Assembly: GCF_000332155.1 (NCBI RefSeq)
Contig: NZ_KB235903.1
Span: forward strand, 715,156-779,155
Length of the DNA: 64,000 nucleotides
DNA from: Kamptonema formosum PCC 6407
GTDB lineage: Bacteria > Cyanobacteriota > Cyanobacteriia > Cyanobacteriales > Microcoleaceae
Reading direction: 5' to 3'
Numbering within the stretch: position 1 is the stretch's first letter; each line of letters opens with the position of its first letter. This document shows positions 536-27,467 of this stretch, piece by piece. Under the pieces are notes generated by a model. That model saw only the letters and a program-made list of their open reading frames with translations, was not told the DNA's origin and searched no databases. Position numbers and translations under genes: made by a program.

Positions 536-713
536 ATATCTGCTTTAGAGATATTAAAAAATAATTAATGAATATTTAATTGTTTGGCATGAACAAAAGA
601 TCATTACTAATAAAGCCGGACAGTGGACAAAAATTTTTCTCAATCGACAAGGTTGTAAAGAACAGAATAGCTTTTATCAATATGGTACGCTGCCTAAAAC
701 CCTATTAAATTCA

Positions 714-1397
714 GTGATGGGCATTTGGCAACAACATCCAGGTGCGGCACGGATGTTAATTTGGTTATTATTTAAAACCAAAATGGGTAAAGAACAGCGT
801 GTCACAGTACCTACATTAATGCGCGTAGCGTATGGTGAGAAAAAATTCAATACTTTATCTTCACAAAAAGATGAACGCAAACGGCTAATGAAAATCTTTG
901 AAAATGATTTAGAAGTTATCAGTTGCTATGGAATAAACCCAGTATTCGATCCCATTACTTATCCACTAGAAATTCAACCCCTATGGGTGAAGCTCAAAAA
1001 TATTCCAGAAGAAGCAGAGGCGGCTTTAGACTTTTGGATTGCAGATGGTAGTAAGAATAATCGCCTAACTGATGTGGCACCTCGTGGTAAGTGGAATCGT
1101 TTAATGAACGCACGAGTATTACATTTTGAAATCCCGCCTGAATGGGAATCTCCCACCAAAATGAAAGTTATTCAGCCTCAAAAAACCAAAGAGAGAAATA
1201 GAACCAAGGTTAAACCATCGGTTGAACTTTCATCTCAACAGATTATTGAGGCAAGGAAGATAAGGCTTTTGAGTCAGAGAGAATTAGCATCATTAATGGG
1301 CAAAAGTCAAAGCTGGATTAGAGATATTGAAAATGGTCGCTTTCAAGTCAAGGGAGAAGACCAAATGTTACTGCGGAAAGTGTTAGGGATGATGTAA
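714..1397 (+). CDS. Hypothetical protein with C-terminal XRE-type helix-turn-helix
   Basis: 227-aa ORF with GTG/ATG start. The C-terminus LSQRELASLMGKSQSWIRDIENGR looks like an HTH_3/XRE motif. The N-terminal part is unrecognised. Confidence 0.5.
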   Translation: MMGIWQQHPGAARMLIWLLFKTKMGKEQRVTVPTLMRVAYGEKKFNTLSSQKDERKRLMKIFENDLEVISCYGINPVFDPITYPLEIQPLWVKLKNIPEEAEAALDFWIADGSKNNRLTDVAPRGKWNRLMNARVLHFEIPPEWESPTKMKVIQPQKTKERNRTKVKPSVELSSQQIIEARKIRLLSQRELASLMGKSQSWIRDIENGRFQVKGEDQMLLRKVLGMM

Positions 1398-2154: not shown

Positions 2155-2919
2155 CTACTTTTGACCAACTTGAAGGCGAAGAATATGCTCCTCTAATTTC
2201 TCAATTCGATCGACTAAACTGCGAATCAGTGCCGCTTCTGCATCTGGCATTTTTCCGTGTTCTAGTGGACAAGTATTTTGAGGAATGCGACGAATATTTC
2301 TACCAGGAACACCTACAACTGTACAATCTGAAGGCACGTCTCGTAATACAATAGAGCCAGCGCCAATGCGGACATAATCACCTACTTCAATATTACCTAA
2401 AACCTTCGCACCTGCCCCGACAACAACATACTTACCAAGAGTCGGATGACGCTTACCGCTTTCTTTTCCCGTACCTCCCAAAGTAACGCCCTGATAAATT
2501 AGGGTGTAATCTCCTAAAATTGCTGTTTCCCCAATGACTACTCCCATCCCATGATCGATAAATACCCCCTTACCAATGACCGCGCCAGGGTGAATTTCGA
2601 CACCGGTGAAGAATCGGGTTAGGTAAGAAATTAGACGGGGGAAAAAGGGAACTTTAAGATTGTGTAACCAGTGGGCAACCCGATGCATTTCCAAAGCATG
2701 AAACCCTGGGTAAAAGCAAAGAACTTCCAGCCAATTACGGGCGGCGGGGTCGCGCTCGAAAATAATCTGAAAATCAATTTTGATTGTTTGCCACCAGTTT
2801 AGAAGTGGATTAGTAGATTGGGCATCCTCTGTTGCTGCTGGAGTGGTTGTACGACCTTGAGCATACAGTTTTTCTTGTGAAATAGGCTTAACTGTTAAAG
2901 GGGCAAAAGTCTGTAGCAT
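2155..2919 (-). CDS. cysE: Serine O-acetyltransferase (nif-cluster CysE, also called NifP)
   Basis: Left-handed beta-helix hexapeptide repeats (GAVIGKGVFIDHGMGVVIGETAILGDYTLIYQGVTLGG) and a SATase N-terminal region. It heads the cysE-nifZ-nifT operon divergent from nifB. Confidence 0.85.
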   Translation of the reverse strand: MLQTFAPLTVKPISQEKLYAQGRTTTPAATEDAQSTNPLLNWWQTIKIDFQIIFERDPAARNWLEVLCFYPGFHALEMHRVAHWLHNLKVPFFPRLISYLTRFFTGVEIHPGAVIGKGVFIDHGMGVVIGETAILGDYTLIYQGVTLGGTGKESGKRHPTLGKYVVVGAGAKVLGNIEVGDYVRIGAGSIVLRDVPSDCTVVGVPGRNIRRIPQNTCPLEHGKMPDAEAALIRSLVDRIEKLEEHILRLQVGQK

Positions 2920-3009
2920 TGCTTTCCGGGGGGTGAAAAAGCCGTAATCTCCATCTCCTGCTTATATCAGATAGTTGAAAACTAGGTAGTTTGCTTAACC
3001 TGGATAGAA

Positions 3010-3224
3010 TTATTAAATTAATTAAAGATGTACTCAAGCACCAAATGCCTTGATAGGAGAGGGATTCATTTTTTTTTGGGGCTATAGGTACGAGTATTTT
3101 TGGCTATAGGTATGAGTATTTATCAGTGACGTACTCAGTATTTATGTACTCAGCCATAAGTCTCTTTCAGCAAGTATTTCAGACTATTTACGTACCAATT
3201 TTGGGGAAGAAAAAATTGTACTCA
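3010..3224. promoter_or_regulatory. Left arm of the mirror-symmetric motif array in the cysE/nifB divergent spacer
   Basis: GTACTCA occurs at 3030, 3131, 3146 and 3218. The box ggggctataggtacgagtatttttgg lies at 3078-3103, and ttattaaattaattaaagatgtactcaa at 3010-3037. Each has an inverted counterpart in 3617-3840. Confidence 0.45.
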
Positions 3225-3616
3225 CCATCTTTTTAGGACTTACTGGGTCTTTAACCCTGTTGGTTAAGTCGTGCTTTGTCAGAATGACTGTCTAGAAATT
3301 ATTTTTTAAATTTTTGTATATCTAACTACTATTTAAGCTTTTATGGCTTACAGTAAAAGTAGCGAGCATCATTTTTTATGTGGCACTTGAGGCAAATCCC
3401 CTATTATTACTTTTATTTTGTCTGTATCATTAGATACAATCAATAACTTTGGTAAAGAAATCGCCAAAAAAAATCCCAGGTCATAAAAAACTGATATATT
3501 AGATACAGAATTAAATTTAAGAATACCGTCAGCCATCTCTCCAAAAGATCGTCTCGGTTATCCCCCTTCTCAATTGCCCTATCAGATTAAATTTGGGGCA
3601 TCAAATTTATATTTTT

Positions 3617-3840
3617 TGAGTACCCATCAAGCCAGTAGAAAATTTGCTATAAATCTCATCAAACCCATGCGCCAACTGGGTTAGCTTTGAGTACAAAAAT
3701 ACCGCTTCTCGGCTACCTAAATACTTATCGCTTAGACCAAAAATACTCGTACCTATACCCCAAAATTTTTTTTCAAATCTATTTTTCCCTTACAGAGTAA
3801 GGATTACAGGTTTTGAGTACCTTCTTAATTAGTTTAATAA
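3617..3840. promoter_or_regulatory. Right arm of the mirror-symmetric motif array (candidate nifB upstream activating / promoter region)
   Basis: TGAGTAC occurs at 3617, 3688 and 3814. ccaaaaatactcgtacctatacccc at 3737-3761 and ttgagtaccttcttaattagtttaataa at 3813-3840 are reverse complements of left-arm boxes. The arm ends about 270 nt upstream of the nifB ATG. Confidence 0.45.
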
Positions 3841-4111
3841 GTCTTATCCCTAGCCATCTCTGCGGGAGGCAATTGAGTAGCTGCTATAAATTTCATAACG
3901 CCAGATGCTTAACCCGCCAAAGGTAATAGGTAATAGGTATTTAAGTAATTGGTAAATTCAAACAGTACCAAAAGCCAAATAACCGATGGATTCTGGGGGA
4001 AGTTAATGAATGGAATGGAGCCTAATATAGGGCCCAACGGATAAACAAAATAATTCCTGTTTGTTCATATTTCCTATAGCGTTGACGAGTCCACTGAATC
4101 CCATAAATTCA

Positions 4112-5566
4112 ATGACACCCCAACCTGGAATCCTTACTAAAACAAGCGCTACTCAATCTACTGGTTGTAGTTCTTCTAGCTGTGGTACTTCCACCGATGG
4201 AATTGACGAAAAACTTAAAAAGCGGATTGAAAACCATCCGTGTTATAGCGAAGAAGCACACCATCACTATGCCAGAATGCACGTTGCAGTTGCTCCCGCT
4301 TGCAACATTCAATGTAATTATTGTAATCGGAAATACGACTGTGCTAACGAAAGTCGTCCTGGGGTAGTTAGTGAACTGCTAACACCCGAAGAAGCCGCTC
4401 ATAAAGTATTAGTGATTGCCGGCAAAATTCCGCAAATGACAGTATTGGGAATTGCGGGCCCAGGCGACCCATTAGCCAACCCGGAAAAAACTTTCCGCAC
4501 CTTTGAGTTAATTTCTGATAAAGCCCCAGATATCAAGCTTTGTTTATCAACTAACGGCTTAATGTTGCCCGATTATGTTGAAAAAATTAAGCAACTCAAC
4601 GTGGATCATGTCACCATTACTATTAATATGGTAGATCCCGAAATCGGCACACAAATCTATCCTTGGGTTCACTATCGGCGGAAGCGTTACAAAGGCATTG
4701 AAGCAGCTAGAATTTTGCACGAACGGCAAATGGAAGGCTTACAAGCACTAAAAGAAGCCGATATTCTTTGCAAAGTGAACTCAGTAATGATTCCCGGAGT
4801 TAACGACCATCACTTACCAGAAGTAAATGAAGTGATTCGTTCTAAAGGGGCATTTCTTCACAACATTATGCCTCTGATTTCAGCACCAGAACATGGCACA
4901 CACTTTGGTTTAACTGGTCAGCGCGGGCCGACACCAAAAGAACTGAAAACAGTGCAAGATAACTGTGCTGGCAACATGAAGATGATGCGCCACTGTCGCC
5001 AATGTCGGGCCGATGCTGTAGGACTCTTAGGCGAAGACAGAAGCCAAGAATTTACTAAAGATAAATTCATGGAAATGCAGCCAGAGTACAACATTGAATC
5101 ACGGCAAGAAGTTCATGCTGGCATTGAGAAGTTTAAAGACGAACTCAAATCAGCCAAAGCAAAGCTCAAACCTAGTCAGAAAGTTGCTAACAGCCCCAAA
5201 ATTCTTGTAGCAGTAGCAACTAAAGGCGGTGGTTTAGTAAATCAGCACTTTGGTCATGCTAAAGAGTTTCAAATTTACGAAGTAGATGCTAACGAAGCTA
5301 AATTCGTCGGTCATCGCAAAATCGATCATTACTGCCAAAGCGGTTACGGCGAGGAAGCGACTTTAGAACACACGATTAAAGCTCTTTCTGATTGTAAAGC
5401 AATTCTAGTTTCCAAAGTCGGCGAATGTCCGAAAGCGGATTTACAAACAGCAGGTTTAGTTGTAGTGGAAGCTTACGACGTAATTGAGAAAGTTGCCCGT
5501 GCATTTTATGACACCCATATTCTCAAAAGCTCTAACGCTATTCCTGAGATTGTAGGTTGTATTTAA
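4112..5566 (+). CDS. nifB: Nitrogenase FeMo-cofactor biosynthesis radical SAM protein NifB (with C-terminal NifX-like domain)
   Basis: Radical SAM motif [15 protein letters not shown]-terminal [29 protein letters not shown] is NifX/NafY-like. The ATG at 4112 is preferred over the TTG at 4061. Confidence 0.9.
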
Positions 5567-5660
5567 TGGCTCTAGTTGATGGGTATGAGGTATAGCAGCC
5601 GCTTCCTAATTGCTAATTTATAAAGCTGTACTTCATTCCATTCACAACTGCTTCTTGCTT

Positions 5661-5712
5661 CCCAATTCCCAATTTCTAATTCCCTTTCCCATTTCCAATT
5701 CCCTGTTCCTAT
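5661..5712. repeat. Degenerate heptamer tandem repeat (CCAATTC-like) in the nifB-nifS spacer
   Basis: cccaattcccaatttctaattccctttcccatttccaattccctgttcc. Confidence 0.6.
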
Positions 5713-5733
5713 TGTCAATCTGAGGACAAGATT

Positions 5734-26333: not shown

Positions 26334-27467
26334 TTAGCCAAAGTTGACTTTGAGTAAAGACCAATCATCATCAAAAGCAGCTTTGGCGTTTAAATTTTGA
26401 ACGTAGTTAAAAACTCGGTCAAGATCGTCAGCATTTCTGTTGTGAGGAGTAGTAATTAGGTCAATAAAAGCATCAAGCCCCCAGATATTGCCATCAGGTT
26501 GATGAATCTCGTAAACCCCATCACTGAAGATATACAGCGTACTCAACTCATCTACATAGCAGGAATTATCGAGATATTCAGCATCTGGGAACATCCCAAC
26601 TGGCATTCCGGGAGTTTTTAGGCGTTTGGCTTTGGGGATACCTCCATCTGTGGATACCAAGACGGCGGGGGGATGGCCGGCACTGGCATATACTAGCTGG
26701 CGCTGAGGTCGGTTGTAAACACCGTACCACATTGTAAAATACTTGTCATTTTGATAACTCATCTGAAAAGTAGTATTGAGCGATCGCAGCACCTCGCTAG
26801 GTTGGTAGTAGTTAATATTGGGAATAGCTCGCGATCGCAGCAAATTTAGAACTGCCACAGAGGGAAGCGCCGCCCTCAAACCATGTCCAGCCACATCCAG
26901 CAAGTAAATCGCCAAATAATCAGAGTCCAGCCAAGTATAGTCAAAGCAATCTCCACCCAACTGCCTCGAAGGGATAAACTTCGCCTCCACGCTCACAGGT
27001 TCCGTCAAAGGATCTGGGAGTAGCGATCGCACATACTCAGCCGCCTCAGCTAACTCAGCCTCCAGTAACCCCTTAGCAATTTGTAAATCTCGGCTGAGCT
27101 GGTGTAGGCGCAGCCCCGCCCGCACTCTGGCTTGCAACTCATTGAGTTCAATCGGCTTAGAGATAAAATCATCCGCGCCAGCATCAAGACCCTTAACGCG
27201 ATCGGCTACCGATCCCAGCGAAGTCAACAAAAAGAATTGAGTAGTTGACAAATCTGGATTTGCCTTAACTCGGCGGCACACCTCTATTCCCGTCAGACGC
27301 GGCATAATCCAGTCGCAAATGATCAGAGCTGGGCGCAACTGTTGAGCCTGTGTAATACCGTCTTCGCCATTGCTCGCTACCGTAACCTCATAACCCTGTT
27401 TTTTCAGGGTTCTTCTCAGCAGCTCTTGAACGGCAGTATCGTCGTCAATAACCAGAATTTGAAACAT
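26334..27467 (-). CDS. Response-regulator receiver fused to PP2C/SpoIIE phosphatase (RsbU-like)
   Basis: The REC domain has ILVIDDD, LIICDWIMP and KP. The C-terminal part has GGDCFDY...DVAGHG...SDGVYE. Confidence 0.85.
   Translation of the reverse strand: MFQILVIDDDTAVQELLRRTLKKQGYEVTVASNGEDGITQAQQLRPALIICDWIMPRLTGIEVCRRVKANPDLSTTQFFLLTSLGSVADRVKGLDAGADDFISKPIELNELQARVRAGLRLHQLSRDLQIAKGLLEAELAEAAEYVRSLLPDPLTEPVSVEAKFIPSRQLGGDCFDYTWLDSDYLAIYLLDVAGHGLRAALPSVAVLNLLRSRAIPNINYYQPSEVLRSLNTTFQMSYQNDKYFTMWYGVYNRPQRQLVYASAGHPPAVLVSTDGGIPKAKRLKTPGMPVGMFPDAEYLDNSCYVDELSTLYIFSDGVYEIHQPDGNIWGLDAFIDLITTPHNRNADDLDRVFNYVQNLNAKAAFDDDWSLLKVNFG

Follow-up and report, generated by a model that had tools for sequence, protein, structure and literature searches.

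The cyanobacterium Kamptonema formosum PCC 6407 (Microcoleaceae) carries nitrogen fixation (nif) genes on contig NZ_KB235903.1 of assembly GCF_000332155.1. The window analysed here is a stretch of 64,000 nt of this contig (positions 715,156 to 779,155 of the forward strand), and all coordinates are counted from its first nucleotide. The genes cysE/nifP, nifZ and nifT are located on the minus strand, whereas nifB, nifS, nifU and nifH are located on the plus strand. These identities had been proposed in an initial annotation made from the DNA sequence and were confirmed with NCBIfam and Pfam. The NifB protein of the window is WP_007356922.1/CBN57728.1. Between the divergent genes cysE/nifP and nifB lies a spacer of 1192 bp (2920-4111), which contains two arms that are imperfect reverse complements of each other and face one gene each (Table 1). 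This spacer had been described as free of open reading frames (ORFs). The public annotation does contain one ORF of 55 amino acids (aa) on the minus strand (3369-3536). It was rejected as a gene: It has no Pfam family, shows patchy similarity in close relatives and overlaps a conserved element on the opposite strand. A search with the Rfam covariance models between 2850 and 4200 yielded no match at E <= 1 on either strand.

The mirror symmetry of the arms was examined by several approaches. A repeat finder detected 84% complementarity over 32 nt between 3006-3037 and 3813-3844 and 81% over 48 nt between 3075-3122 and 3718-3765. When the left arm was aligned locally, with gaps allowed, to the reverse-complemented right arm, the score was 73. 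By comparison, 500 dinucleotide-preserving shuffles scored 20.0 +/- 2.7 with a maximum of 30 (z about 20), and a control in direct orientation scored 18. This bears out the imperfect reverse complementarity noticed in the initial annotation, and all arm matches quoted there were found again where they had been placed. The heptamer GTACTCA/TGAGTAC is present in 14 copies in the window compared to 4.9 expected, a number reached by none of 100 shuffles. Seven of the 14 copies are located inside the arms, with opposite polarity in the two arms: on the plus strand at 3030, 3131, 3146 and 3218, on the minus strand at 3617, 3688 and 3814. The arms comprise 399 bp, for which the rate of the remaining window predicts only 0.04 copies (Poisson P about 7e-14). 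In addition, the 24-mer GGCTATAGGTACGAGTATTTTTGG (around GGTACGAGTA) occurs in the window solely at 3080 on the plus strand and, with one mismatch, at 3737 on the minus strand, with 0 occurrences expected. The limits originally assigned to the arms, 3010 and 3840, proved to be too narrow, as the similarity reaches as far as 2961-2970 and 3881-3890, where the extended -10 boxes are located. Each unit thus has a length of about 265-275 bp. What is mirrored is the whole promoter (3617-3890 on the plus strand, 3224-2961 on the minus strand) and not the upstream boxes alone.

Table 1. Promoter modules, conserved elements and genes in and near the nifP-nifB spacer. Negative numbers give the distance to the start codon of the gene faced by the module.
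Feature	Position	Strand	Remarks
Third module	291-180	-	profile match, E 6e-11
cnfR 3' remnant	612..1397	+	codons 274-534, helix-turn-helix (HTH) domain retained
cysE/nifP	2155-2919	-	first gene of nifP-nifZ-nifT
nifP extended -10 CTGATATAAG	2961..2970	-	TG 67 nt after 1C start
nifP-side box 1C TGAGTACATCTTTAATTAATTTAATAATT	3008..3036	-	-117
nifP-side motifs 2A and 2B, ...AAATACTCATACCTATAGCC / AAAAATACTCGTACCTATAGCCC	3066..3126	-	22-bp tandem pair, plus A run
nifP-side box 1B TGAGTACATAAATACT and extra box TGAGTACG	3130..3152	-	-233 and -218
nifP-side box 1A TGAGTACA	3217..3224	-	-305
Partial second UE core	3420..3438	+	contains TGTA-N8-TACA; conserved only in closest relative L009
Central element UE AAAAAACTGATATATTAGATACAGAATT	3485..3512	+	A tract, then extended-10-like sequence
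nifB-side box 1A TGAGTACC	3617..3624	+	495 nt before nifB ATG
nifB-side box 1B TGAGTACAAAAATACC	3688..3703	+	-424; contains first of three AATAC repeats
nifB-side motif 2A TACCTAAATACTTATCG	3714..3730	+	named after bioRxiv 10.1101/2025.04.01.646610
nifB-side motif 2B ACCAAAAATACTCGTACCTATACCCC, then A/T run	3736..3776	+	
nifB-side box 1C TGAGTACCTTCTTAATTAGTTTAATAAGT	3814..3842	+	-298
nifB extended -10 CTGCTATAAA	3881..3890	+	TG 68 nt after 1C start
nifB	4112..5566	+	ATG at 4112

Both units are built alike. Three TGAGTACA(A) boxes, designated 1A, 1B and 1C, start at 3617, 3688 and 3814 on the nifB side and at 3224, 3152 and 3036 on the nifP side. The distance from 1A to 1B is 71-72 bp, that from 1B to 1C 116 bp (nifP) or 126 bp (nifB) and that from 1C to the -10 box 67-68 bp. 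The additional nifP-side box TGAGTACG, which starts at 3137, is strain-specific. The pattern AAATACT(C/T)(G/A)T(A)CC, corresponding to motifs 2A and 2B, is found twice per side at a distance of 22 bp. Moreover, AATAC occurs three times, exactly 22 bp apart, on both sides (on the nifB side at 3698, 3720 and 3742). The cores of the extended -10 boxes are TGCTATAAA at 3882-3890 and TGATATAAG at 2969-2961, and a sigma-70 scan revealed no -35/-10 pair at either position. Based on the conserved position of the extended -10, transcription of nifB is predicted to start at about 3897, yielding a leader of about 215 nt. For nifP, the predicted start is about 2954, which leaves about 35 nt to the ATG at 2919.

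Promoters with these components have been investigated in other cyanobacteria. CnfR (PatB) activates nitrogen fixation in cyanobacteria, and promoters that depend on it contain three TGAGTACA(A) boxes (1A, 1B and 1C) and, between 1B and 1C, the A/C-rich motifs 2A and 2B. Such elements were described upstream of Anabaena variabilis nifB1, nifB2 and nifP and in the nifB-nifP spacer of Leptolyngbya boryana (bioRxiv 10.1101/2025.04.01.646610, PMC8510180, PMC5943405). An extended -10 box without a -35 box is the promoter type described in PMC8510180. The L. boryana genes nifB and nifP diverge from a common spacer, and their transcription was shown experimentally to depend on CnfR (Tsujimoto et al., 2014, 2016, as reported in PMC5943405 and bioRxiv 10.1101/2025.04.01.646610). 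Furthermore, purified CnfR has been reported to bind fragments with these regions (Rachedi et al., 2023, as cited by later work). Start sites of nifB were mapped at -328 for A. variabilis nifB1, at -282 in Anabaena 7120 and at -296 in Nodularia, and the A. variabilis nifP start site is located at -34 (bioRxiv 10.1101/2025.04.01.646610). In the window, the boxes on both sides match the published CnfR cis-elements. The same ordered module therefore precedes both operons, in agreement with the earlier suggestion of one activator, CnfR/PatB. The start sites mapped elsewhere lie just after the extended -10 that follows 1C. By homology, those of the window would likewise be located downstream of the arms, as the initial annotation had anticipated.

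Conservation was analysed with the orthologous spacers of six other genomes, which were obtained via their NifB proteins. The mirror layout recurs in four other genera, represented by L006, L010, L012 (Allocoleopsis franciscana) and L004, a locus from Leptolyngbya in which the genes are ordered as in the nif cluster published for L. boryana. These four loci and L011 have both arms at equivalent positions, and the ordered module and its spacing are kept in five other genomes. The motifs had been expected to be conserved in orthologous spacers, and the retained order and spacing agree with this. On the nifP side, the distances of the three boxes to the start codon are nearly invariant in the orthologous spacers (-305, -231 to -233 and -115 to -118). 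An alignment of 12 modules, seven from the nifB side and five from the nifP side, displays the block order 1A, 1B TGAGTACAnAAATAC, 2A, 2B AAAAATACTCGTACCTATAGCCC, A/T run, 1C TGAGTACAnnnTTAATTAnTTTAATAA and TGnTATAA. The last block is invariant in 12 of 12 modules, and the 2A/2B columns are invariant, too. The alignment profile matches both modules of the window over its own full length (E 2.5e-72 and 1.9e-68). In L011, which is more distant, it likewise detects both modules. Apart from the modules, roughly the first 30 nt of the predicted nifB leader (CATAACGCCAGATGCTTAACCCGCCAAAGG, 3891-3925, plus strand) are nearly identical in the window, L009, L006 and L010 and recognisable in more distant genomes. 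This segment may be a conserved element of the 5' untranslated region.

To extend the comparison to single modules, a 22-base signature composed of 1C and the extended -10 was used: TGAGTAC N4-5 TAAT NANTNNAA N38-48 TGNTATAA. It has only two matches in the window, 3814-3889 on the plus strand and 3036-2962 on the minus strand. One match was found in all IMG/VR and at least 120 places in the species-genome collection, and nearly all records listed are cyanobacterial. The census was confined to 84 signature matches in 80 loci. Among them, 25 are located before nifB and 24 before nifP, i.e. 49 of 84 together; in L083, the signature is present on both strands before nifB and nifP. About 26 of the 84 precede a gene for a membrane protein of roughly 140 aa with an N-terminal hydrophobic stretch, and the remaining ones lie at locus edges or before unidentified genes. 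The distance between the end of the -10 and nifB is about 300-312 nt in the Nostocales loci. The signature marks CnfR-type promoters almost only in cyanobacteria, and the identified targets comprise three gene families.

The roughly 140-aa protein starts with MKAKLLNVLTVCVVTL... and belongs to no Pfam family. It is encoded in Nostocales and Chroococcidiopsis (L014, L020-L022, L029, L037, L039, L041, L046, L048, L051, L052 and others) and probably represents the alr2522 family. The alr2522 promoter was named as a third CnfR-bound promoter in the preprint of the Thiel laboratory. A further signature match (L090, 3114-3190, minus strand) was found before a NifP-like gene (57% identity) in a metagenome-assembled genome labelled Candidatus Gracilibacteria; the contig is most likely cyanobacterial and was wrongly binned.

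The spacing of the blocks was determined for 144 distinct modules. 1A and 1B are separated by 70-75 bp, in five cases by 82-84 bp. The distance between 1B and 1C is either 114-119 or 124-128 bp, with no value in between, and that between 1C and the -10 is 66-69 bp. Both 1B-1C classes are present in the window, with the nifB module (126 bp) in the longer and the nifP module (116 bp) in the shorter one. Since the classes differ by one helical turn, the spacing suggests that the boxes have to face the same side of the DNA helix. Such helical-turn steps constrain models of the contact between CnfR and RNA polymerase. Similarly, the well-known NifA/sigma-54 systems of proteobacteria employ repeated activator sites before nif promoters lacking a normal -35, where helical phasing matters, and NifA sites are often shared by or duplicated between divergent operons. 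The components differ: NifA belongs to an unrelated activator family and is an AAA+ enhancer-binding protein that recognises TGT-N10-ACA and acts on -24/-12 promoters, whereas CnfR combines an XRE-HTH with a ferredoxin part and acts on an extended -10.

Taken together, the spacer very probably contains a complete CnfR-type nif promoter for each operon, the two being arranged back to back. By homology with the characterised systems, CnfR/PatB would bind the upstream boxes and recruit or activate RNA polymerase at a promoter devoid of a -35. One module would drive nifB-nifS-nifU-nifHDK..., the other nifP(cysE)-nifZ-nifT, and the common activator would cause both operons to switch on together. 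The architecture, its mirrored duplication and the conserved positions and spacings are evident from the sequences compared here. For CnfR dependence, in-vitro binding and start sites, this reading draws on the literature from other species. The arrangement itself is already known as the textbook layout of non-heterocystous cyanobacteria. The window is an ordinary but well preserved case, which adds a Kamptonema example to the known regulon architecture and provides testable coordinates for both promoters.

A close known counterpart is the nifB-nifP region of L. boryana. Here, too, nifP and nifB diverge from a spacer of about 1.2 kb with a module facing each gene. In the L. boryana-type locus L004, 1C plus extended -10 are located at 5639-5714 on the plus strand and at 4868-4793 on the minus strand. 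Block order, extended -10 and a central element designated UE (L004 5349; see below) are the same. By contrast, L. boryana carries nifENXW behind nifP, nifVZT behind nifK and a fdxN gene, whereas the window has nifP-nifZ-nifT and no fdxN, and the 1B boxes of L. boryana are degenerate (TAGAGTAC, TGAGTGT). Furthermore, function has been demonstrated in L. boryana, while the window is known from its sequence.

The nifB1, nifB2 and nifP promoters of A. variabilis were reportedly also the subject of work by Vernon and colleagues in 2017. They share with the window the three TGAGTACA boxes, 2A/2B and the extended -10 without -35 (Thiel laboratory preprint, 2025) as well as a long nifB and a short nifP leader. 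In L007, the nifB2 boxes are located at -550, -479 and -352, and the resulting spacings of 71 and 127 bp resemble those of the window. In A. variabilis, however, nifP is not linked to nifB, and the nifZ2 side of the nif2 spacer contains only a partial module, whereas the window has two full ones.

The initial annotation had offered a different explanation for the symmetry: The arms might be the terminal inverted repeats of a foldback element, resembling a miniature inverted-repeat transposable element (MITE), which inserted between cysE and nifB. Long imperfect inverted repeats do enclose an AT-rich core, and cyanobacterial genomes are in general rich in small repeats. However, identity between the arms amounts to only 53% across the module, compared to 71-76% between each arm and its orthologue in related genera. 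Arms of the same genome are 50-55% identical, which is no more than a nifB arm shares with the nifP arm of another genome. As the arms are closer to their orthologues than to each other, the duplication must be old and the copies have evolved separately. Their positions are fixed across genera, with equal distances from the start codons in five genomes of different genera. The arms have no discrete ends, as their similarity is split into conserved blocks that reach the -10 boxes. The core between the two 1A boxes measures roughly 390 bp here and varies between 229 and 392 bp among relatives, yet keeps a conserved oriented element. No empty site was found among the relatives examined, in which both arms are present throughout, nor was a further full copy found in the 64-kb window. 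In Nostocales, single modules even precede unlinked nifB or nifP genes and a third gene family. An inserted foldback element is hence very unlikely as the origin of the arms.

Two other alternatives concern the function of the modules. A single module could serve both promoters while the other one is a decaying duplicate, as was suggested for the nifZ2-nifB2 spacer of A. variabilis; on the nifZ2 side of L007, indeed, no more than two boxes are exact and the profile matches weakly. In the window, however, the profile matches both modules over its own full length with the E values given above, both keep all boxes and an extended -10 of their own, and both are 71-76% identical to their orthologues. 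In addition, stand-alone nifP promoters of Nostocales carry the full module. This makes a dispensable second module quite unlikely. Likewise, CnfR might not be the main protein that binds the boxes; NtcA or another factor could take its place, and CnfR dependence might be indirect. Effects of the boxes that differ between genes, a perfect TGTA-N8-TACA palindrome at 3421-3436 and a truncated cnfR gene adjoining the cluster in the window could be seen in favour of this view. Against it stands the reported binding of purified CnfR to such fragments (Rachedi et al., 2023, as cited in later publications). Furthermore, the arms lack GTA-N8-TAC, and the palindrome at 3421 is located between them and conserved only to the closest relative L009. 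An NtcA-type promoter with GTA-N8-TAC near -41.5 of a TAN3T -10 is absent from the arms, and the distance of the 3421-3436 palindrome to both -10 boxes is wrong. A main role of another regulator is therefore about as improbable as a decaying second module, and two CnfR-type promoters are preferred as the reading of the spacer.

Two observations weigh against this preferred reading. One comes from published work: Box roles vary by gene and species, and 1B is dispensable for L. boryana nifB and important in A. variabilis (bioRxiv 10.1101/2025.04.01.646610). This variation leaves unsettled which boxes CnfR contacts. The other is the state of the cnfR gene in the window, which lacks the start codon and codons 1-273. 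An intact gene of 534 codons is found on contig CACA01000315.1 of PCC 6506 (L002), where it is adjacent to and convergent with nifT. CnfR is defined by two N-terminal 4Fe-4S motifs and a C-terminal XRE HTH. The 534-aa protein has an N-terminal 4Fe-4S domain (Fer4) and a C-terminal HTH_3 domain and is, over its full length, 64% identical to an XRE regulator of A. variabilis. Based on these domains and this identity, its sequence identifies it as a CnfR orthologue. The window is 99.99% identical to CACA01000315.1 apart from one deletion of 861 bp (contig positions 3478-4338), whose junction with an AAT microhomology lies at 611/612 of the window. With it, cnfR has lost codons 1-273, among them those of the Fe-S domain, as well as its start codon and 43 bp of the upstream region. 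No other part of the window contains the 861-bp piece, and a related metagenome contig carries an intact cnfR. The proposed activator may consequently be missing in this strain, and the cis-array may be idle unless another cnfR copy exists. If the deletion is not an assembly error, an intact cis-array has been retained beside a dead activator gene.

The core between the arms contains the conserved element UE mentioned above, in which an A tract is followed by an extended-10-like sequence. Its consensus is A6-7 n TGnTATnTT(A/G)GATACAGAA. No other block upstream of nifB is as invariant, and UE was found in 38 distinct sequences from heterocystous and non-heterocystous genera. The strand is always that of nifB, and UE precedes the nifB-side 1C by 244-359 nt, mostly by about 320. 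In nearly all nifB regions examined, among them those of Kamptonema, Leptolyngbya, Nostoc, Anabaena and Calothrix, it lies about 120 nt upstream of 1A. In the sequences examined, it was never seen at the equivalent position before the nifP-side module. A metagenome scan was performed with the 16-base UE core. This pattern is too short, and about 111 of 120 matches look like chance; the nine matches with an A tract all lie before TGAGTAC boxes. The element may be undescribed so far; no mention of it was found in the literature that could be searched, and searches for a small RNA upstream of nifB gave nothing relevant.

About 25 nt behind UE, the sequences of Nostocales, L. boryana and others contain CTGGAGTAG...CTACTCCAG together with a T run. 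Most nifB regions examined have a hairpin CUGGAGUAG...CUACUCCAG with a U run after UE, and RNAfold predicted it in every hairpin-bearing case tried. In 29 sequences, pairing is retained in 93.5% of the cells. The changes comprise 24 one-sided ones, all to G-U on the nifB strand, and only three double-sided ones, and the shuffle control was not beaten. These data suggest an RNA structure. Kamptonema and its close relatives are devoid of the hairpin. The Kamptonema version did not yield a significant RNAfold structure (z -1.4), and in L010 the segment behind UE is missing altogether. A possible explanation, put forward tentatively, is that UE is the extended -10 promoter of a small nifB-coupled unit. 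The RNA made from it would measure about 55-60 nt, and its 5' end would be invariant. It could either act in trans as a small RNA or, as an upstream transcript, modulate the CnfR module. A search of the window for the complement of the putative 5' end of this RNA detected only UE itself. As a second lead, UE might be the binding site of another regulator. The full regulatory unit on the nifB side, from UE to the -10, spans about 400 bp, which matters for the transfer of nif clusters to other hosts. Of the findings, the nifB-specific UE, the spacing classes and the truncation of cnfR merit further study.

The surrounding gene content varies between related loci. No fdxN is present between nifB and nifS of the window, which are separated by a gap of 167 bp (5567-5733), whereas L004 and L011 have fdxN. 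Neither is there a nifV beside nifP in the window, whereas L006, L010, L011 and L012 have nifV beside nifZ. A 377-aa ORF at 26334-27467 on the minus strand is NifV-like by length only. The locus L011 (GCA_000332335.1, KB235948.1) is labelled Kamptonema formosum as well. Its NifB is 85% and its CnfR 59% identical to those of the window, fdxN and nifV are present in its nif cluster and both promoter modules are more diverged. Because this cluster differs from that of the window, the name Kamptonema covers at least two types of nif clusters. The label of L011 prompted the idea of two nif clusters within one Kamptonema genome. This was discarded, as nothing places both in the same genome.

Finally, the profile recognised a third, shortened module near the left end of the window. 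It comprises a 2B-like AATGCTAGTACC, an A run, a 1C box TGAGTACAGCCTTAATTAG at 229-211 and TGATATAA at 187-180, and its 1C is only 42 nt away from the TG of the extended -10. The module is conserved in the related contig L142 (4076-4200). It faces genes that lie immediately beyond the window, the first encoding a 206-aa cupin-like protein and the next ones CBS/CP12 and Fe-SOD proteins. A UE-like sequence, TTTGTATATTTAAATACAG, is located nearby at about 488-512 on the minus strand.

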